Both the position numbers and the translations under genes were made by a program. A stretch of 53,776 nt of DNA, filler included, from Stramenopiles sp. TOSAG23-3 (taxonomy: Eukaryota), in the NCBI GenBank assembly GCA_900128585.1. It is 4 parts of 4 records of this genome, joined end to end, with 100 filler letters (N's around TTAATTAATTAA, not from the genome) between each part and the next. Parts side by side here need not be neighbours in the genome. Positions count along the whole stretch, not along the records: positions 13,506 to 26,888 come from LT642629.1; 3 more parts are not named here. One strand, given 5' to 3'. The first letter of the stretch is position 1, and each line of letters starts with the position of its first letter. The notes below the pieces were generated by a model that saw only the letters and a program-made list of their open reading frames with translations, was not told where the DNA came from and did not search any database. This document shows positions 1 to 50,700 of this stretch, piece after piece.

Positions 1-4
1 AGGC

Positions 5-3000
5 GTGGTCAAAATTGCTACGGAAGAATGGCGGGATATTGCAGAGTTTGCGGACATGATGACCCCTGAGCTTGCTGGTGCCGCACGAAACAAAGAGCAG
101 GCCGAACAAGCATTGACAAGCGTGCTGTTGAGCGCGGAGAAAACAGCGGTCAAGAACAACTTGACGCTGGAATATGTACGGAGTATTCAGCACAGCCGAA
201 TGACCATGGTCGAGTCGCGGGTTCTTGACAATATTCGCGCGGCAGAAGAAGTTTTGCAGAAAAGCCGGGGGCTGATAGAGATGAAGAAGTTCGCCCTTTC
301 GAATTTGCAGCATGTTGGGTCACTTGTCTCGGTGGCAGAGAACGCAGTAAGAATCTTGAAAAAGAATAGCCAGGTTGCCAGCAGCAGCGACGAGGAGTAC
401 AGCGACGGAGAGATGGGCAGTGGGAGCGGCGACGACGGTGGCAAAGTGTGCATAGACGGGAACAACGACTTGAAGCAACTGGACAAGCCATCCAAACACG
501 AGCGCGGTGAAATCGAAATGATGACTGCCATACAGCTTCGGGCAGAGAGAAATTTAAGGCAGGCGTTCAGTGCCCTGACCGCTCTCGAGAAGGACTACCA
601 GTATGCCAAATCCTTCTTGGTCTTTGACACAGATCGTTCCAAAGCCACGATGGAACACGTAGCGAAAGCAATCGAAAAGGCAGAGGCGGCAATTGCAATC
701 GCGGAGTGGCGACACGAACGACTCCGAGGCGTGGCCCCGCCAAAATTTTTGAACGCAGTCGACCAAGCTGTAAGTCAAGTGGAAAAGTTGGAATCTTTCA
801 TGGAAGTCATGTACCGGGTAAATCGTGACGACGAAATGCGTTCGCGCGAGAAATCGGCTCTTCTCGCCGAGGATTTTGAGACGGGACAATTTAGGGAAGA
901 TGAAGAGTACTACGAGCAAAACGAACGAAAGAAACTTCGCGGGCTAGTGCCCTCACTGTTCGCCAGAGAGAAAAGGATAGAGCAGCGATCCAGGGTCGCA
1001 GGCGGGTCTACCGCAGAGGAAGTGAAAAATGAGAGGCCCCTCCTGACGGTGCAAGCTCTTGGGCACCCAATTCGTGTCACCGGCGGCGGGGCAGAGGATG
1101 CCGCGTCTTTCTTTGACGAAGAAGAGCGTGTCTCGTGCGAGCAGAAGAAAAATCTACTGGAAGAGGCAGAACGGGCCCATCGTGTGATCCAACTTCGGGT
1201 AGAGGCAGAGGACAAGCGGCGGGCGGACAAACAAACAGATAGAGAACAGGCGAAGGCCCGGAAGAGCCAGGAAATTGTCGAGGGGAAGCTACAACAAGAG
1301 CGGGTGCGGAAACGAAAAGCCATCGTTTTCCATCGCGCGCAAGGAAATTGGATCCGCATGAAAGATACAATAATGCAACAACTCAGGTTAACTTGGAAGC
1401 GTCTGCAAAGGGCAAGGCAAACGATTGTGCGCCAGAAAAGAGATCGGGATGGAATGACAAACGAGGACAGCATTGCAAGAAGGATGCGCGCCGTCCAAAA
1501 TGCAACGAGCAGCATGATCGAGGCCAGCATTGATTCCGTGTGGCAAAGCCAAGGCGAGCACTTAGACAGAGAAACCGCGCTTGCGGTTGCGCTGCGCACT
1601 ATTCAACGTGACATGGCACTCGAAGAATCGGAAGAGAACGGCGATGTTCTGACGCTCGGGGTACTGGATTGTACCGACTTCGCGTCGGAGCGAATATCGC
1701 CCCGTCAGGGGGAGAAGCATGTGTACCCAGAGATAATGCTTGCCAAGTCGCTCGACGACACCTTGCAGAGAATGATTGAAAACGCACCGCAGGCGGACCA
1801 AGTAGGTATACGGAGGATTCGATTGATTCCCTTTCGATGCAATCAGGGTGAAATACCCACACGCCCACAACGGAAACGTTTTCACGGATTTGTGTTGACC
1901 TCTGCGCTGGCGCCGTCCACCCCGTACAATTACAGTGGTTTGAACCAAGGGAATCCTCGGCCACCCCGTTGGCAGACAGCGCTGAAAGCGTTTCTGCGGG
2001 ATATCATCGGCGAAAAAAGGCGTCTCTTGGCAATTGGTGGCGGGCACCTCTTTCTTGCCTCGGCGTTTCCGGGGCATAGAATTGTCCCGTACGCCCGCAA
2101 ACCTCCGCTGAATCTGAATTCATCCTTGACCCCCCCGACGCGCGCGGAAACGTTGGAACGGGCGTGGCAGTGCGGGAATATTCAGGCGACTGCGGTTAAC
2201 GCAGACGTGCCGGTGCTGTTTCAGCGATATTTGGAAGGGGGCGAACTTGTGTTGCCGTTTGCACGCGATGCAATCCTGGCAGAAGTTCCGGATAATTTCA
2301 AGACGCTTTTGGTTGCAGGAGCGCAAGGGAGCGCTGAAGGCTTGCTGCCGAGTATCGACTGTATGTATTACAAAACAAACGTGCTGTCGTACCAGAGCAT
2401 TCCACACATACCCCCTACTCTCATACGGCACCGGTTGAATGAAATATCCATGGAACTCCAAAGCCAAACCAAAGTTGAAGGTACGCTACCAAATGTGCCC
2501 ACCCGCACACAGTTGCAAAAGCCGTGTAATAAAGACCTGCTTGTCGAGATGGCGCTGGCATTTTTCGCGCTGGGGATACCCAAATCGGCGAACGCCCAAG
2601 CCCCGTCGTCCCCGGATTTGATGACAAAATCAGAGCTTACGTCCCAAAAGGCGGCCGTAATGGCACGGAAAATTCTAATCGAGGCGACAAAACGTGTGGT
2701 TAGTTATGTCAGCCCCTCCAAACAACATCCGGCCATGTCCCCTGAGAGAGCGATCGAGGACATGGATGATGAAACACTAATCACCGACGAAGCTTCCAGC
2801 GAGCCTGAAACGAAGGAGAGCACCTCGCCGTTGCGGATTGCGCAAATGCTGAGTAACCATCTTCCCGAGAACCCGCACCCTGTCTTCCGCCACTATACAA
2901 GCGTGCCCAAGGTTATCGCATGCGGCCATACTGCCAAAGAAACGCAAGATGACCTATTGTCTCCCCGTCAAAATAGCAAAGGGCGGTCTTGCGATGCTGT

Positions 3001-4513
3001 TGTTATCGGTATTGTACCCTCTAGTGATGGGACATTGATGGTGCTGCCTTCGCCTCTTATCTCCCGGTTCACAAACTTTGACTCCGTTTACTCCACGGTA
3101 GACGACTCGCTGGACAATATTCTGAGGAACAGAAAAGACAGTGCGGCAAACAGATTTTTGTCAAAATTCAGTCTCGTTGACCCAGGGAATTTCTGGCTTA
3201 ACCAGGCTGCAGAGCACGAAGTTGACTCCGCGACGGACGGGCTAAATCGAAGACACCTGTGGGTACACGACCTACCGACGTCTAAGCTTAAGACGTTGAA
3301 GGCATGCCGCCCAGATCATTGGAAACGGATGGAAGGGCAGATAGTCAACATTGCCAAGCCGTCCGAAGTATGCACCCTGCAAGAGTACTTGGAGAAGCTG
3401 GTCAGAATGAAACGAATTTCTTCATCAGAAACTGATTTGTGGGTGGTTCCCATCGGCGCGGAAGCCTATCGTGATATTCGGCTTGACGTCGCCGCACTGT
3501 TGGCGGAGCAAGCATATTCCGTGACCGAGAAACATAACATTCATACCACAATTGCAACGTTTGATGCGAAGGTTATTAAAGAGATGAGGCGCACCTGTGT
3601 GCGTTGGAAGTTTATCCAGATATTAAACAACAAATCACTCGAAACGCATGGGATTCGGCCTGGTGCAAACCCCAACATCTTGAGAGTCTTTATGCGGAAA
3701 ATTTCGCTCTACGCCGACGGTATATGCGTGCGCAAAGAGATGTTAATCCGAAGACCTGGCAAAGAGCCACCGAGAAAGATTATACAGATCAAGAATTTAA
3801 AAGCCGCTGTGCAGCAAATGCCCCACCTGATAGCATGCGCCCGGGCGGCGAGTTTGTCCGTTTTTTCCCATTGCTTTTCGTCTGATCAGGCCTCCCTCCA
3901 CCCGTGCTACAAAGGGTCCCCTTCCGAAGAGTATGCCCGTTTTTTTGCGCTTGGTGTTGACGGGCTAATAACACAACACGCCACGATGGCAGCCCGCGCT
4001 CGTAACTTGCATTGCAACAGGGTAAATATGCTGTCCAATGTAAAGCCAGTTGAGAGTCCCCGAGAAACCCTTCAGCAGCACAGGAAAAATAGAGAAAACT
4101 TAAGGAAGCTTGAGAAACAACGCAGTCGCAAACGTGAAGTTCCAGCGAACATCTGGGATCGGGCGGTCGAGTACGCTGAAAAACAACAACGGGATGAGGC
4201 GCAAATGCCGCTTATGAGGATCCCGCAATCGTGCCTTCCCCGGCCTCGAAAATCTCGAATTTCTGACCAAAAGAAGTTTGGGACCCCACGCCCTCCAACG
4301 ACCGCAGCGCCTAAATTTCGGCCCATGAGTACAAATGCGGGGAAGCGCAATACAAACGTTTATCGTCGAGGCATTGCCCGCATTTCTAAAAGAAACGAAA
4401 TGCACAAAAGGCCAAGGCAAACACACTTTTCTTCTGGCGTTCCAAGTGTACCGAAAGGCGTAATCAAAGACACGTACACAATTTGGACCGAACTGGCGGG
4501 TGAAAACATGTAA
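5..4513 (+). CDS. Large protein, 5'-truncated: coiled coils + degenerate class I glutamine amidotransferase-like domain + degenerate glycerophosphodiester phosphodiesterase (GDPD)-like domain
   Basis: 1502-aa ORF open from the window edge. GATase-like motifs at about 1645-2575 (LGVLDC, FHGFVLTSA, LAIGGGHL, SYQSIPH). GDPD-like motifs at about 2903-4000 (PKVIAC, SSDGTLMVL, DLPTSKLKTL, YADGI, YARFFALGVDGLIT). Confidence 0.75.
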   Translation: MVKIATEEWRDIAEFADMMTPELAGAARNKEQAEQALTSVLLSAEKTAVKNNLTLEYVRSIQHSRMTMVESRVLDNIRAAEEVLQKSRGLIEMKKFALSNLQHVGSLVSVAENAVRILKKNSQVASSSDEEYSDGEMGSGSGDDGGKVCIDGNNDLKQLDKPSKHERGEIEMMTAIQLRAERNLRQAFSALTALEKDYQYAKSFLVFDTDRSKATMEHVAKAIEKAEAAIAIAEWRHERLRGVAPPKFLNAVDQAVSQVEKLESFMEVMYRVNRDDEMRSREKSALLAEDFETGQFREDEEYYEQNERKKLRGLVPSLFAREKRIEQRSRVAGGSTAEEVKNERPLLTVQALGHPIRVTGGGAEDAASFFDEEERVSCEQKKNLLEEAERAHRVIQLRVEAEDKRRADKQTDREQAKARKSQEIVEGKLQQERVRKRKAIVFHRAQGNWIRMKDTIMQQLRLTWKRLQRARQTIVRQKRDRDGMTNEDSIARRMRAVQNATSSMIEASIDSVWQSQGEHLDRETALAVALRTIQRDMALEESEENGDVLTLGVLDCTDFASERISPRQGEKHVYPEIMLAKSLDDTLQRMIENAPQADQVGIRRIRLIPFRCNQGEIPTRPQRKRFHGFVLTSALAPSTPYNYSGLNQGNPRPPRWQTALKAFLRDIIGEKRRLLAIGGGHLFLASAFPGHRIVPYARKPPLNLNSSLTPPTRAETLERAWQCGNIQATAVNADVPVLFQRYLEGGELVLPFARDAILAEVPDNFKTLLVAGAQGSAEGLLPSIDCMYYKTNVLSYQSIPHIPPTLIRHRLNEISMELQSQTKVEGTLPNVPTRTQLQKPCNKDLLVEMALAFFALGIPKSANAQAPSSPDLMTKSELTSQKAAVMARKILIEATKRVVSYVSPSKQHPAMSPERAIEDMDDETLITDEASSEPETKESTSPLRIAQMLSNHLPENPHPVFRHYTSVPKVIACGHTAKETQDDLLSPRQNSKGRSCDAVVIGIVPSSDGTLMVLPSPLISRFTNFDSVYSTVDDSLDNILRNRKDSAANRFLSKFSLVDPGNFWLNQAAEHEVDSATDGLNRRHLWVHDLPTSKLKTLKACRPDHWKRMEGQIVNIAKPSEVCTLQEYLEKLVRMKRISSSETDLWVVPIGAEAYRDIRLDVAALLAEQAYSVTEKHNIHTTIATFDAKVIKEMRRTCVRWKFIQILNNKSLETHGIRPGANPNILRVFMRKISLYADGICVRKEMLIRRPGKEPPRKIIQIKNLKAAVQQMPHLIACARAASLSVFSHCFSSDQASLHPCYKGSPSEEYARFFALGVDGLITQHATMAARARNLHCNRVNMLSNVKPVESPRETLQQHRKNRENLRKLEKQRSRKREVPANIWDRAVEYAEKQQRDEAQMPLMRIPQSCLPRPRKSRISDQKKFGTPRPPTTAAPKFRPMSTNAGKRNTNVYRRGIARISKRNEMHKRPRQTHFSSGVPSVPKGVIKDTYTIWTELAGENM

Positions 4514-21846: not shown

Positions 21847-24800
21847 TCACCCGCAATCACCCACAATGCCTATGTTTGCCTTTTGAAGGGCAGATACAAA
21901 GTTTTCTATGCCCTGCCTTTCGTTGCCGTGAAAAGCGACGTTCAATTTAGTTTTCTTGCCAGATTTGACACAGAATCCTTCATAACAAGGTATACCAAAT
22001 ATTCCGTTTCTTACATTTTTCCTCCTTTCGACAAAGTGGTGGGAGGGAGCCTTGTCAGTGATATGAAACTCTTCAAGGCTGCATCCATCGTTTTTTTTCA
22101 ATTCCACAACGCAGGTATTTTCAAGTAGTTTCCATGTCATTTGACGCTCGCTCCACTTCCAGAATGGAACGTGCGTTGTTCTAACTTTTTTCTGAACATT
22201 GAAAATTTTCTTCTCCTCAGCACTGTCACTAACATGGTCTAATGTTGATTCCACGTTGATGTCCATTTCTTGTGTTTGGGCGTTAAAAATCTCTGTACGC
22301 TTGACTGGGGTTTCGAGGAACACAGTCGCATTACTTGTCAAACAGGAATACCCGCAGTTTTTAAGAGTAGAAACATGCTTGGGTCGCACCCAGTGAATAC
22401 TCAATGTGTTGTCTTCCGACACACGAACTAGCTTCTTTTCATGTTTTATGTCTGCCCACTCTTTCCTATCCTCTCCATCATCCGTAGTCAACAATTTTTT
22501 AATTACTTCGTAGTTCGTTTTACAGTAGCACTTTCAGTGTTTCCATCGTTCTCCATTTTTTGATTTAAATATGAAATCGTTTCTTTGACATCATCCGTAT
22601 CGTCCGGGTTGCACGCGACAATCTGTTCCATTTCTTCTTGATAAGTAAGTGCATTTTGCAATGCTTCCTGGATGTTAGTGCCAAATATACTGAAAGGTAT
22701 GGGGAGACCAGCAAGGTTTCCAAGTTTTGCAGCAGCAGAAAATATTTTGGCACAAATCAATAGCATTGGTGCCACCTTGACCATGAGATTCCCAGGCATC
22801 TCTATTGGTATTCCCTCTCCAGGGATAGGATCTCCGGCAATACGAGGCTCCTCTTCATTCGGGAGTAGAATAGGACCTTCATCTAGAATAAATAAACGCA
22901 TGTGCCGCTTCCATGTTACGATTTCCAAAGCCTTTTTTTTCATTTGTTTCACCAATGACAGAATTGGACTGCCTGTACACGACTTTGAATGGTCTGGCAA
23001 TAGCAAAACGTAACGGGGAAGCTCTGTCTTCGTAACACCTACCATGACCTTGAATAACCCTTTGACNNNNNNNNNNNNNNNNNNNNNNNNNNNNNNNNNN
23101 NNNNNNNNNNNNNNNNNNNNNNNNNNNNNNNNNNNNNNNNNNNNNNNNNNNNNNNNNNNNNNNNNNNNNNNNNNNNNNNNNNNNNNNNNNNNNTTTCGCA
23201 TCCACTTTAAGCAATACTTGACTGTTTTTAAGAATTTTACTCACCTTCTCAAAGACTGACGCATGAACAGAGCCCTGAAAATCGCTTATTGTTTGAGACA
23301 GTTTCTTGTCTAATTTATCAAACTTTTCCTTGAATTGTTTCGTTGTTAAACATCGCATGGCCCAATTTTTCCCACGGTATGTTTCCACCAAAGTGTAAAT
23401 CTTTACAAACACATCTTCTACCGCTTTAGCCTGCTTTAGGACATGTGATACATTTCCGCCGCCACGTTGTTGAACCAACAATTCTTCTAATACTACGCCA
23501 AACGCATCTTCCAGACCCTCGCAACGCTTTAGTACCGATTTACATTGCTCTTCGTTTTTTGTGCCACCATCAATTAAAGATTTTATCTCCAAGCCGACAG
23601 TAATGATTCCGCCGATGACAGGTGCAGCTTTTGCCACTTCGACCAAACCTGCAACGCCCGCTACAGCTTCGATTATTTTCCCTATTGGTGTATCGCCCGG
23701 TCTACTCGCTTTTTTGCCACTCGTTGACGTTTGCTTGGCATCATGTCCAAGATATTCATTATACGCGGCCTTCGTCTTTTGCAGCGATTCCTTTAACTTA
23801 TCTGCGCCGTCGTACGCATCCGTCAAGTTTGATTTGACTTTCATGGCTCTCTGTCCTGCTGCTTTTGCTTGCGCCCACCAATGATTCTTTGATAAGACAT
23901 TTTCCTTCACGATCTCGTCGCACAGCTTGGAGCCGTTTGTCACACCACTACCGCTTTCTGTAAGCCAGGAGAGAATGGTTGGTGCAGCCTCTCCTCCTCC
24001 CGCGTTCGAGTTGGAATTTATCCATCCACCCTTTCCCAAACGTTTCACACTACCGAGTAAAAAGGTTTCGTGTTCACCATTGTGCTTTCTACACAGGTAT
24101 GTGGTAGGCGTAAATTGCTCTCGATAGAACTGGTTGGACATATCGCGTATAATCCCTTCTATCTCTTCCATAGTATTTGGGCATGTCCTGCGCGGGTCAA
24201 TGTAAACGTACAAACAATGCTCTTTAACAGATTCTACGATCCAGAAGTATTGCATTCCAAGAAACAATCGCGCTCTTAGTTTTTCAATGCGTATACATTC
24301 TAGTTTCATGTCAATTTTGATTTTGTCTTTCATTGCCATCGACTCCCCCAATTCATAACAACGCTGCACCACAGTGGCTACAACTCTTGATAATAGTCCG
24401 GTAGGTATAAACGGGGCACGGCTGTCGTGGTATCGAAGCTCCACTTTAAAATGCAAGCTTTCCCCCCTGCGCAACTCCCCTACTTCGATGCTATCTAACG
24501 GTTTACTGCCCCTTTCCATGAATACACTGGGAACTAAAAAGTACTTCCCATCTTGATCAAGATTTGCAAGCAGTCCAAACCTCACCATCAACTCAACAAC
24601 AGCGTCGCGCACTGTCGCATCATTGTCCTTTTCTCCCCAAAATGGAAGATGTTCCAGCAACGCTTTTGCCAGAACGCCGTTCTTCTTTAACAACTCCATG
24701 TTATACGCTTGGGATCCATCCGTTTCTGCCTTTTGTTCACCCTTGAATGGAGTAATACCATGTTCACGAATCACAGCCCCGATCATATCAATCAACCACT

Positions 24801-26888
24801 GTGGGTCCAAAACAACATACCTTTTGACGAGAGATGAAAACGTGAAATGGAGAAACAACCCAAGTTTATCCAGGTAGAGTATCATACTCATGCATTCGTC
24901 GGGTTCTATCTGAAAAGTTGAAGCGAAGCGTTCTAGTTCTGTGTATTTAACGTATCGTTTCGTGGAGAAATGTTTTGAATTCTGGACCGCGTCGACAAAT
25001 TTCATCCAGTTTATCGGGACGTTTTTTTTCACATACGGCTCCTCTCGTATTTCCCTCACAATAGCACGATCCAGCATTCGTGTCGTTGCCTCGCGCTCGG
25101 CGTCTCCACTTGTTTTGTTGTTGATCGGAAAAAAGCAAAGCCCCCCTTCGTTTTTCGTACGATTGCAGTCAATGATCCGTAACTTTGAGCGGATACTTTT
25201 TCTTGTCCCTGGCTGCCCAAGGATAGTGTCGATTTCTTCGTGAACGGTTCGGATTTCTTCATCGGTCACTTGGTCTTTTCTACTTCCAACCAAAAAGACT
25301 GGAGCACTGCTGTGCTCCTCCCCACCTCCTTCGTTTTTCCCAGCGTGCATCATAATGCTATTTAACCAAAACAAAAGAAAAGTTTTGGCACGCAATTTTC
25401 GTTGATTCACTGCATCTTTCAATTCCTCGTCCCATTTTTTTGTCTGGAGTTGTTTGATCCAACTTCCATCTTGCTTCACGGCTGCCCCAAGCCATTCTAC
25501 ACTTGGATCTTCATTCAGCAACGAGCACGTTGCGCATACGGCATGGCCCTCTTGGAATGATACACATTGTTTCTTTTTGCAGCATATGGAGCCACAGAGG
25601 AAACAGTGTTTGTATTGAGAAAACAGTATATCCAACTTGAAGCGTTGCGTACAGCGTGGGCCTTCTCCATTTTTTTTCTCGTACACTGTGCATCGATTTT
25701 GCCCTTTCCTGTTAAAAAGGGACTCTGGCGCCTGTCGCTTCCCAGACGGGCACCGTGCGCGATTCCGGACAGCATTTCGCCGATCAGTGGGTGTGGCACC
25801 ATCTAAGAAATCGGTCATTTTGAAGACCAGCACGTAGGCACCTTCGCGTTTTAGAAAAAGATGGTGAAGGGCATAAAAGACCTGTTGACCTCCGTAGTCC
25901 CACGTTGATACGGTTAGCCCGGGCAAGCTGCTTTGCTTCGACTGTCGTTTTCTTTGCTCTACCACAACGTCGGCGAGTAGAAGGTTTACATCCTCAACGC
26001 TGGTGGCCGTCGATGAATTCGAACGCGCTGCGCTTTCTGTACGAAACACGCTTTCCTGCCCTTGTTGTTCTACCCCCTCGTCATCACCAAGTTCACGCGT
26101 TTCGACGCTTTCGCTTTGCTGCTGTACTCCCTCTTCCTCACCAAGTTCAGGTGCTTCGATGCTTTCCCCTTCGCCGGTTGCCTCCACTGTCGCTATGTCA
26201 GCAGTTTCTTCGTTGTGCCCATGATCGTTTTGTGTCGCCTGGGGCCCTGCGTCGACTACGTTGGAATCTTGTGCAGAAGGTTTGTCGAGTACGTTGATGT
26301 CTTCTGTCGGTACTACATCGGCAGCCTGTGTCGGCATCGACAAAGCCCGCAGCGCGCTTGTTACAACTTCGTTGGTATGCTTTGCAGTTCCCGCTCCAAT
26401 CGTTTCTTCTACCAGAAGCTCAGTGCGATTTAATTGAATTGCTGCCGTAACATCGTGTTGGTACGAAAATGCTTCGCCACACAGACTTTTTTGCACACTC
26501 GTCTTGCCCACACCACCTTCTCCAACAAACATGATTCGTGCCCGCATCCAAGGGGCTAAGTTTTCAGGGTCCATAAAATGTTTCAATTGATGCCGCAAAT
26601 TATGGTGCTGGGCAGTTTCATAGTGCCAAACACGGATCGTCTTGTCATAAGAACCGGATACGATACGTGACCCATCATGGTTGAAAGCCACAGAATAGAC
26701 CCAATCAGAATGGCCTTTCAACGTCGTCAAACATGTTCCTGTCGACGTATCCCAGACACGGATCGTCTTGTCATCAGAACCGGATACGATACGTGACCCA
26801 TCATGGTTGAAAGCCACAGAACGGACCAAACCAGAATGGCCTTTCAACGTCGTCAAACATGTTCCTGTCGACGTATCCCAGACACGGA
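21847..26888 (-). CDS. WD40-Roc(FYVE-like insert)-COR-MLKL/HeLo-like ROCO protein, 5'-truncated; internal N gap and a frameshift near 22510
   Basis: WD40 repeats at 26630-26888. Roc motifs GEGGVGKT, WDYGGQ..FY..H.LFL, VGSRKD. COR motifs VPINW and VVLDPQWL. Helical bundle at about 23200-23690. After the gap a ROCO-type C-terminal region continues (PRYVLLLP, RLFIL.E, KVAP.L, AGLPIP), then ORF 21847-22494 follows in another frame. Confidence 0.85.
23067..23193. other. Scaffold gap (127 N) inside the ROCO gene
   Basis: Run of N without the linker, with coding sequence on both sides. Confidence 0.97.
26630..26888 (-). repeat. 126-bp tandem repeat encoding WD40 units (two full copies plus the start of a third, cut by the contig end)
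   Basis: Units start at 26630, 26756 and 26882. The two full units differ at 5 of 126 nt. Confidence 0.97.
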
Positions 26889-26988: not shown

Positions 26989-27067
26989 GAAGAAGAAAGA
27001 AGAAGAAAGAAGAAAGAAGAAAGAAGAAAGAAGAAAGAAGAAAGAAGAAAGAAGAAAGAAGAAAGAA
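26989..27067. repeat. (GAAA/GAA)n purine microsatellite
   Basis: Pure A/G tract at the contig start. Confidence 0.9.
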
Positions 27068-45440: not shown

Positions 45441-45557
45441 TCTCTTCTTCTTTCTTCTTTCTTCTTCTTTTTTTTTCTCTTCTTCTTCTTCTTCTTCTTT
45501 TCTTCTTCTTCTTCTTCTTTTCTTCTTCTTCTTTTCTTCTTTTTTTTCTTCTTTTTT
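45441..45557. repeat. (TTC)n pyrimidine microsatellite
   Basis: Near-pure C/T tract upstream of the GNAT gene. Confidence 0.9.
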
Positions 45558-47408: not shown

Positions 47409-47586
47409 CTTCTTCTTTTCTTTCTTTCTTTCTTCTTCTTCTTCTTTCTTCTTCTTCTTTCTTCTTCTTTCTTCTTCTACTTCTTCTTCTACTTCTTCTT
47501 TCTACTTATTCTACTTATTCTTCTTTTTCTTCTTCTTCTTCTTTTTCTTCTTCTTCTTCTTCTTCTTCTTCTTTCTTCTTCTTCTT
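47409..47586. repeat. (TTC)n microsatellite
   Basis: Long C/T tract between divergent genes. Confidence 0.92.
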
Positions 47587-50506: not shown

Positions 50507-50525
50507 GAGAAGAGAGAAGAAGAAA

Positions 50526-50558
<33 letters not shown>

Positions 50559-50700
50559 AGAAGATGAAGAAAAGAAGAAGAAGATGAAAGAAAGAGAAAG
50601 AAGAAGAAGAAGAAGAAGAAGAAGAAGAAGAAGAAGAAGAAGAAGAAGAAGAAGAAGAAGAAGAAGAAGAAAAAAAAGAAGAAGAAGAAAGAAGAAGAGG
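50507..50700. repeat. (GAA)n microsatellite
   Basis: Long purine tract between the divergent RABGGTA and METTL13 genes. Confidence 0.95.

Follow-up and report, generated by a model that had tools for sequence, protein, structure and literature searches.

The closest described counterparts of the locus analysed here are the HNWD/NWD proteins of Podospora anserina (HET-E, HET-D, HET-R) and other fungal NOD-like receptors (NLRs) whose sensor repeats show high internal conservation (HIC). The locus is a tandem WD40 array at the end of a contig within a 53,776-nucleotide stretch of DNA from Stramenopiles sp. TOSAG23-3 (GCA_900128585.1; this whole stretch is hereafter called the window), and the gene that carries it is predicted to encode a ROCO-type protein. 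Among 69 Podospora WD40 units, codons 7, 9, 25 and 27, which flank two conserved positions, 8 and 26, are strongly positively selected (Paoletti 2007, PMC1805685). Fungal NLRs carry HIC WD, ANK and TPR repeats with positively selected sites on the binding face, and such repeats make up 16% of annotated repeats and 21.6% of WD repeats (PMC4986451); HIC-type repeats have been reported from filamentous bacteria too.

Another relevant system comprises the LRR-ROCO proteins of the brown algae Ectocarpus and Saccharina, in which Roc-COR is likewise combined with diversifying N-terminal repeats. These leucine-rich repeats (LRRs), encoded with one exon per repeat, are subject to repeat (exon) shuffling and alternative splicing, sites on their ligand-binding face are positively selected, and the proteins have been proposed to be immune receptors, with no effector domain described (PMC11378527). 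In contrast, the window protein has WD40 instead of LRR units, encodes them in one open reading frame (ORF), and bears an MLKL_N-like domain after COR. Other ROCO proteins carry WD40, TIR, death, and CARD domains, and MLKL is mentioned nowhere in that paper (PMC11378527). We did not find the combination of Roc-COR with MLKL (with WD40) in the open-access literature, supplements lying outside that scope.

Similarly to HNWD, the window array consists of 126-bp (42-aa) WD40 units that are near-identical in DNA and differ only beside two conserved residues, the V that follows GH and the D within GS-x-D, on the predicted interaction surface (PMC1805685). As in HNWD and other NLRs, one protein unites a repeat sensor with an NTPase switch and a domain of the cell-death type (PMC4986451), and short-read assemblies break or collapse in the array, as they do in HNWD and HIC NLR genes (PMC12222747). 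Unlike HNWD, the window protein uses a Roc-COR GTPase, not NACHT, as the switch, and its order is reversed, the array preceding the switch and the death-type domain following it. A HET domain is not visible in the window protein, its host is a marine protist and not a fungus, and concerted evolution and selection are assessed here from two units and a sister lineage, compared with 69 repeats in Podospora (Paoletti 2007). The analogy with HNWD holds for the repeats, not for the whole protein. The best explanation of the locus is that its two complete units are the last two blades of a longer, near-identical WD40 array, and that this array serves as the N-terminal sensor in a ROCO-type protein of very large size.

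Placement of the differences between the WD40 units

The window is built of four contigs, joined by spacers of the form N + TTAATTAATTAA + N (3 matches; 0.04 expected by chance), and therefore position 26888 is a genuine contig end. The array lies at the extreme end of contig 2, with N from 26889 on. Tandem Repeats Finder (TRF) reported one array at 26626-26888 with a period of 126, 2.1 copies, 95% matches, 0 indels, and a score of 484, and the WD40 profile PF00400 matched two stretches (90.6 bits, cutoff 27). The coding strand of the repeat gene is the minus strand, with the frame running from 26886 downward, and the WD40 units are contiguous within a single uninterrupted open frame:

26763..26888, minus strand: WD40 unit 1, 126 bp, abutting the contig end (Pfam WD40 PF00400, TRF, codon alignment)
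26832-26830, 26829-26827, 26823-26821 and 26775-26773, minus strand: variable codons of unit 1, GGT (G), TTG (L), CGT (R) and GAT (D), respectively
26637..26762, minus strand: WD40 unit 2, 126 bp (alignment with unit 1, codon comparison)
26706-26704, 26703-26701, 26697-26695 and 26649-26647, minus strand: variable codons of unit 2, GAT (D), TGG (W), TAT (Y) and TAT (Y), respectively
26626..26636, minus strand: partial copy, 11 nt, which closes the last blade (..IRVW), with unique sequence beyond (TRF and alignment)

When read on the minus strand, unit 1 (26888-26763) and unit 2 (26762-26637) show 5 nt differences, which affect 4 of the 42 codons, namely codon 19 (GGT/GAT, G/D), codon 20 (TTG/TGG, L/W), codon 22 (CGT/TAT, R/Y, 2 nt), and codon 38 (GAT/TAT, D/Y). 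All five changes are non-synonymous (5 over 95 sites), with no synonymous change over 31 sites, and the units share 38/42 residues (90%) and 121/126 nt (96%). Homogeneity of the array extends even to its synonymous sites, and the differing residues belong to the propeller top face. The partial copy adds one synonymous difference at 26629, where it has GTT instead of the GTC of both full units (Val of RVW).

At the contig end, the minus-strand ORF is still open, its first visible residues belonging to the closing strand (RVWD...) of another, upstream blade, and therefore the array extends past the contig, with the true N-terminus of the protein lying beyond the contig end. No further unit cores were found in the window, where the core is present only twice when up to 3 mismatches are allowed. 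The repeat on the contig spans 263 nt (~87 aa), which is short of the 100-aa length criterion for HIC repeats (Dyrka 2014).

The changed codons correspond to GH+2, GH+3, GH+5, and GS-x-D. We mapped the Podospora numbering of Paoletti onto the units through the consensus, anchored on the conserved V that follows GH and on the D in GS-x-D, and under that mapping codons 7, 9, 25, and 27 become GH+3, GH+5, GS-x-D, and D-x-T. Three of the four changed window codons are then codons 7, 9, and 25, and the fourth (GH+2) is adjacent. Placing at least three of four changed codons within a set of 4 among 42 has a hypergeometric P=0.0014, and finding at least four of five changes inside 12 nt has P=0.009 by simulation; the placement of the differences is significantly non-random. 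Non-synonymous changes at the five hot codons (GH+2, GH+3, GH+5, GS-x-D, and D-x-T; 5 of ~13 sites) exceed synonymous changes anywhere (0 of 31; Fisher P=0.0012), also when the silent difference in the partial copy is counted (P=0.0042) and when the comparison is restricted to the four a priori codons (P=0.0021), all these tests being based on very few events and the first on a hot-site set that is partly post hoc.

The earlier note on this DNA, made from the sequence alone, had described five amino-acid-changing differences in four codons, a contig ending inside a longer array, and changes at the hypervariable positions of HNWD. Its count is exact by codon alignment, the open ORF beginning within a further blade bears out the longer array, and GH+3, GH+5, and GS-x-D match the Podospora positions, with GH+2 adjoining them.

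Variation in a sister lineage

In a search of 5.8 billion proteins, the Roc-COR-MLKL_N part of the window protein had a full-length match in one cluster only, P0002 (42% identity over 99% of the query), and the family in public data is accordingly tiny. The cluster comprises 11 members from different assemblies, the longest of which, P0150, contains two WD40 units, Roc, COR-A, and MLKL_N. Among the members that reach the N-terminal side, the number of units is 0 (P0002, P0142), 1 (P0148), or 2 (P0150, P0146, P0145). This disagreement between sister assemblies points to assembly collapse, which Ament-Velasquez and colleagues described for Podospora HIC repeats in SPAdes assemblies (PMC12222747).

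The sister units vary only at GH+2 (E/S), GH+3 (T/S/Y), GH+5 (Y/A/N), GS-x-D (E/W/D/A/H), and D-x-T (N/K). The set of five positions had been fixed in advance from Paoletti and the window, and the probability that five variable positions of 42 coincide with it is P=1.2e-6. The earlier note had held that units with evenly spread variation would speak against its interpretation; in the sister lineage the variation falls at the homologous positions and nowhere else. At four scaffold positions, both window units share one residue and both sister units another: T/A (TTL/ATL), K/T before GH, S/A after GH, and I/V before RVW. Such a lineage-fixed scaffold suggests homogenisation within each lineage, that is, probable concerted evolution, from the small sample of 2 units per lineage.

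Gene architecture, host and wider relatives

The gene is read as WD40(n)–Roc–COR–MLKL_N-like domain–C-terminal region of no known family, as predicted by profile matches and colinearity with P0150. The frame from 26886 stays open for 1336 codons, through an N run at 23067-23193, and the C-terminal segments colinear in BLASTP continue the gene, and thus its visible part extends over ~21850-26888. The features downstream of the array are:

25270..26540, minus strand: Roc GTPase domain, interrupted by a long acidic insertion (Pfam Roc PF08477, 49.5 bits, cutoff 27; Ras PF00071, 23.5 bits)
26523-26500, 25899-25885 and 25284-25273, minus strand: Roc motifs, P-loop GEGGVGKT, DYGGQ and SRKD (G4-like), respectively, in order
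24523..25017, minus strand: COR-A domain (Pfam PF16095, 62.6 bits, cutoff 35.3)
23224..23613, minus strand: MLKL_N-like domain of the four-helix-bundle type (Pfam PF22215, 27.7 bits, cutoff 27)
23067..23193, no strand: N run (scaffold gap) inside the gene, with a different reading frame on either side
21850..23066, minus strand: C-terminal continuation with no Pfam family (BLASTP to P0150, three-frame reading)

The nucleotide-binding motifs of Roc are the P-loop GxxxxGK[ST], DxxGQ, and G4. The window protein carries predicted counterparts of all three (GEGGVGKT, DYGGQ, and SRKD), and the succession of Roc and COR, found in the same arrangement in P0150, assigns it by sequence to the ROCO family. 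In this it resembles LRRK2, Dictyostelium, and bacterial Roco proteins, which have the Roc-COR tandem with an intact P-loop and DxxGQ and in whose family WD40 occurs. It differs from LRRK2, whose WD40 domain is C-terminal, old, and diverged and which has a kinase after COR, in having an N-terminal array of near-identical units and no kinase. No NACHT or NB-ARC domain was found among the best 25 of 45 Pfam families for the 1231-aa visible protein, nor when the Roc-COR and C-terminal halves were scanned apart (Pfam, E<=1). The protein is not of the NACHT/HET-E type; Roc-COR takes the place of NACHT, and the array stands on the N-terminal rather than the C-terminal side of the switch.

The domain that follows COR scores over the gathering cutoff for MLKL_N, as in MLKL, plant MLKL and RPW8, and fungal HeLo-like executioners, whereas, unlike MLKL, it is internal and is followed by no pseudokinase or kinase. 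In P0150, the PF22215 match reaches 39.1 bits. An Atlas feature search with that segment of P0150 gave top scores of 0.93 and 0.92 (201 and 194 shared features) for two fungal clusters, with MLKL_N on 36% and 26% of their members, followed by lower matches to MLKL_N, RPW8, or MCAfunc in plants. No MLKL match for P0002 was found among PDB sequences (E<=1; 36 matches, all Roc or small GTPase), the best being the bacterial Roco proteins 4wnr, 3dpu, 6hlu, and 8r4b, with LRRK2 Roc also matched. A glycine-rich hydrophobic stretch of ~32 residues (23572-23667, minus strand) overlaps the start of the MLKL_N-like domain and reaches upstream of it. This stretch is near-invariant between the window protein and its sister lineage (42% identity), exceeds every other part of the C-terminal half in conservation, and may insert into membranes.

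About 450 residues without an assigned family follow the MLKL_N-like domain. Their segment 22506-23066 is colinear with P0150 residues 1219-1404 (BLASTP 44% identity, E=9e-50) and 21850-22494 with residues 1416-1616 (29% identity, E=6e-21). No Pfam family was found for this region (0 families in a scan of P0149) and no usable match in Atlas. In the AlphaFold2 model, the last ~100 residues form about seven strands and a helix (pLDDT ~55-70), only a hint of a small beta domain at the C-terminal end. Logan contigs of four read-archive runs (X1, X12, X7, and X15) were aligned to one unit and the gene body. All four (4/4) contain the same 36 extra letters (12 codons, in frame) between 23880 and 23881, which the window does not have, and contigs of run X1 break precisely at this point.

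The host is called a marine unicellular eukaryote. Neighbouring ORFs have eukaryotic domain sets (CAP-Gly with metallophosphatase and EF-hands; CCDC81; MORN; prenyltransferase alpha repeats). Parts of the gene were found in 20 of the 24 runs listed, with at least half of its words in 14, and the metagenomes among the runs listed are labelled marine or seawater, the others bearing a coded organism name. Six of the 20 gene-bearing runs are RNA libraries, several of them oligo-dT or polyA, and in an oligo-dT RNA run, contigs align to the gene body with 0-1 differences, which hints weakly at expression of the gene.

More distant relatives of both halves of the protein were also searched for. With the 95-aa repeat as query, 7761 of 8000 scored candidates in the protein collection had E<=1e-10; the best 120 listed matches, mostly fungal NLRs and cyanobacterial proteins, did not exceed 69% identity, and a near-match search gave 18 of 629 candidates at E<=1e-36 with a top identity of 68%. 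With top identities of 69% and 68%, the collection holds no further near-identical units of the window gene. The 1136-aa Roc-COR-MLKL_N query gave 2679 matches at E<=0.001 among 1.84 billion representatives, 619 at 1e-10, and 21 at 1e-30. Among the matches listed, the best stretches were mostly Roc-COR, the exception being P0151, a 96%-identical fragment of 236 aa; none of the 149 listed proteins P0152-P0300 had at least two WD-like motifs by regular expression. The closest Roc-COR relative outside the family, P0152 (1621 aa), has two tandem Roc-COR modules, each followed by a segment that is TIR-like by eye. P0013 (1437 aa) has 14 highly similar WD40 repeats N-terminal to Roc-COR and an N-terminus that is TIR-like by eye, and its units vary mainly after GH and at GS-x-D.

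In JGI metagenome contigs, a degenerate pattern for VAFNHDGSRIV matched six loci, the window gene not being among them; these loci encode WD40 proteins with other partners. In the marine locus L001, two neighbouring genes (1350-2903 and 1-1197, both minus strand) each encode 6-7 related WD40 units followed by an ADP-ribosyltransferase exoenzyme-family domain (PF03496, 37 bits, cutoff 23.4), and the first has a lysine-proline-rich linker. The product of the L005 gene (47-2197, plus strand) begins with a signal-like N-terminus, continues through 7 related WD40 units and a Ser/Pro-rich stalk to a hydrophobic span, and ends in TIR_2 (56.5 bits); it is a predicted secreted or membrane protein, with a Toll-like layout and a WD40 ectodomain, and L002 and L006 are similar. 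The fusions to ADP-ribosyltransferase, TIR_2, and Roc-COR thus indicate that such WD40 arrays have been joined repeatedly to immune- or toxin-type outputs, which fits a sensor role. In the older arrays of L001, L002, and L005, the ratio of non-synonymous to synonymous polymorphism (pN/pS) is 1.49, 1.22, 1.84, and 1.30 at the five hot codons and 0.42, 0.45, 0.40, and 0.40 at the other 25, which shows top-face variability to be a general property of the WD40 repeat.

Elsewhere in the window, a 1503-residue ORF (2-4513, plus strand), open at the window start, matches no Pfam family at E<=1e-6. Long intergenic microsatellites of the types GAAGAAA, TCT, CTT, and AGA, distributed over several of the four contigs, lie at 26989-27067, 45443-45553, 47409-47586, and 50508-50698, and one microsatellite begins exactly at the start of contig 3.

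Competing explanations and biological meaning

We consider it slightly more probable than the opposite that the locus encodes a WD40 sensor array whose units evolve in concert and whose binding face is hypervariable, mounted on an NLR-like, GTPase-switched receptor that may trigger membrane damage. This explanation includes an inferred immune role along with inferred repeat shuffling and diversifying selection. The units would be homogenised by unequal crossing-over or gene conversion, and selection would favour or preserve differences on the binding face, yielding many recognition surfaces, as in fungal HNWD receptors. The later steps are proposed with less support: a ligand on the propeller would release the Roc-COR switch, standing in for the NACHT/NB-ARC module of NLRs; the released switch would expose the MLKL_N-like domain and the conserved hydrophobic stretch, causing membrane damage; and the outcome might be regulated cell death or defence against a virus, a parasite, or a non-self cell. 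The sequence reading of the repeats is confirmed, and the HNWD-style interpretation of the earlier note is partly supported. Its claim of diversifying selection is favoured by five changes against 0-1 synonymous ones (Fisher P=0.001-0.004) and weakened by the partly post hoc site set and by the whole-unit ratio of non-synonymous to synonymous change (dN/dS), whereas of the repeat shuffling that it had invoked, none was observed.

Several points weigh against this explanation. Only two full units are visible, and that all five changes are non-synonymous is not significant when taken alone ((95/126)^5=0.24). Top-face residues are the least constrained positions of any WD40 propeller, and therefore the confinement of variation to them is no proof of positive selection. 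The sister lineage was compared at the protein level only. In addition, P0146, P0148, and P0150 start with MSHVTRSDD immediately ahead of their 1-2 units; if this start is true, the arrays are too short for a propeller, and if it reflects a collapsed assembly or a missed exon, it says nothing about array length. An immune role for the ROCO-MLKL_N protein is proposed from its sequence, and the window MLKL_N match is just 0.7 bits over the cutoff. AlphaFold2 models of the MLKL_N-like segment (all-helical, mean pLDDT, the predicted local distance difference test, 46.1) and of the C-terminal 391 aa (pLDDT 43.6) are too poor to use; with both at low confidence, the MLKL_N-like fold is unconfirmed. 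The C-terminal part also shows an apparent frameshift near 22505-22520 in a three-frame reading: at 22495-22525 (minus strand), one frame stops at ...ATVKRTTK*, and the continuation homologous to P0150 (..NYEVIKKLLTTDDGEDRKEW..) sits in another frame. The frameshift may stem from an assembly error, a genuine lesion, or a very short intron that escaped recognition; taken with the N gap, it means that the window copy of the gene may be broken or mis-assembled.

The read-archive contigs bear on both sides. In run X1, a 62-nt unit-core contig has a depth of 176.7, compared with 22.9 for a 2845-nt gene contig, and in run X7, an unrelated seawater metagenome, unit contigs have depths of 79.2 and 58, compared with 5.3-8.1 for gene-body contigs; Logan depth also counts paralogs and other organisms, cannot be taken as a copy number, and is therefore read only as unit-core words being ~8-10x commoner than the flank in two independent data sets. 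The presence of only 2-3 copies, which the earlier note had named as a finding that would speak against it, is unlikely, since unit-core contigs are several-fold deeper than the flanking gene. Three of the four unit-internal differences listed fall at hot codons (plus strand: 26705 T>C, GAT>GGT; 26696 T>A, TAT>TTT; 26697 A>T, TAT>AAT). The fourth, 26656 G>A (TCC>TCT), is synonymous and accounts for 79.2 of 87.3 depth in X7, while both window units have TCC; a silent change common to most copies in another population is predicted by concerted evolution, here from a single site. Two points count against the favoured explanation: the D-W-V-Y combination of unit 2 was not reproduced among the listed contigs of the four runs, which is not evidence of absence (nor are the stretches of the unit left uncovered in X1 and X12), and X1 record 3 (1934 nt, on 24513-25740) matches three pieces of the Roc-COR region with 7, 24, and 31 differences. 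The latter points to a paralogue, and repeat units may therefore be common to a small gene family.

The strongest competitor, which we nevertheless regard as unlikely, is an ordinary regulatory WD40 propeller of a ROCO signalling protein (cf. LRRK2), in which gene conversion would keep the blades uniform and the few differences would be neutral changes in unconstrained surface loops, with neither diversifying selection nor a recognition repertoire. WD40 repeats are common among ROCO proteins (PMC11378527), top-face positions vary most also in the older, diverged arrays of L001, L002, and L005, and dN/dS over the whole unit is not significant, all of which such a propeller would accommodate. 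However, neutral hot sites would change like synonymous sites, and what is seen is 5/~13 versus 0-1/31-34 (P=0.001-0.004); moreover, the sister lineage has at least five residues at GS-x-D and three each at GH+3 and GH+5 across four assemblies on an unchanged scaffold, and the window protein bears a cell-death-type domain. Chance, in the form of a very recent tandem duplication followed by five random substitutions, could be entertained for so small a sample, about three quarters of random changes being non-synonymous, but we consider it highly improbable in view of the clustering (P=0.009), the overlap with HNWD codons chosen a priori (P=0.0014), the recurrence in the sister lineage (site set P=1.2e-6, which already makes chance unlikely), and a depth suggesting far more than two units.

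An assembly artefact would mean that a collapsed or chimeric repeat path, perhaps mixing paralogous genes or cells, had created an unreal adjacency of units or pairing of variants. The contig breaks within the array, Logan contigs end at the variable cluster, the D-W-V-Y combination being absent from those listed, sister assemblies disagree on the number of units (0, 1, 2), 36 nt present at 23880/23881 in 4/4 runs are absent from the window, and short-read assemblies are known to omit or create such repeat units (PMC12222747). An artefact would scramble the pairing of unit variants, yet it would not restrict variation to top-face codons; the positional pattern recurs in independent assemblies of another lineage, and a 535-nt contig of X7 (record 24) links the unique flank with unit 2 as far as 26691. 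We therefore judge this account improbable, more so than an ordinary propeller and less so than chance.

The favoured explanation, a concertedly evolving WD40 sensor array on a GTPase-switched receptor, would have consequences beyond this gene. Receptors that diversify rapidly are characterised by near-identical repeats whose binding-face residues are hypervariable, a pattern documented so far mainly in fungal NLRs and filamentous bacteria. If the explanation is true, this mode of receptor diversification would also operate with a new switch module and in a new branch of eukaryotes, on a ROCO protein with an MLKL-type domain in an abundant marine protist, and the gene would be a tangible candidate for regulated cell death among marine plankton. 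More tentatively, marine protists could possess an NLR-analogous class of proteins, with Roc-COR in place of the STAND ATPase (signal transduction ATPase with numerous domains), a hypervariable WD40 repertoire, and an MLKL-like, necroptosis-like death of single cells. If so, sensor, switch, and executioner would have been assembled independently for a third time, and MLKL-type killing would be used by free-living unicellular eukaryotes, for example in abortive infection against viruses or in allorecognition.

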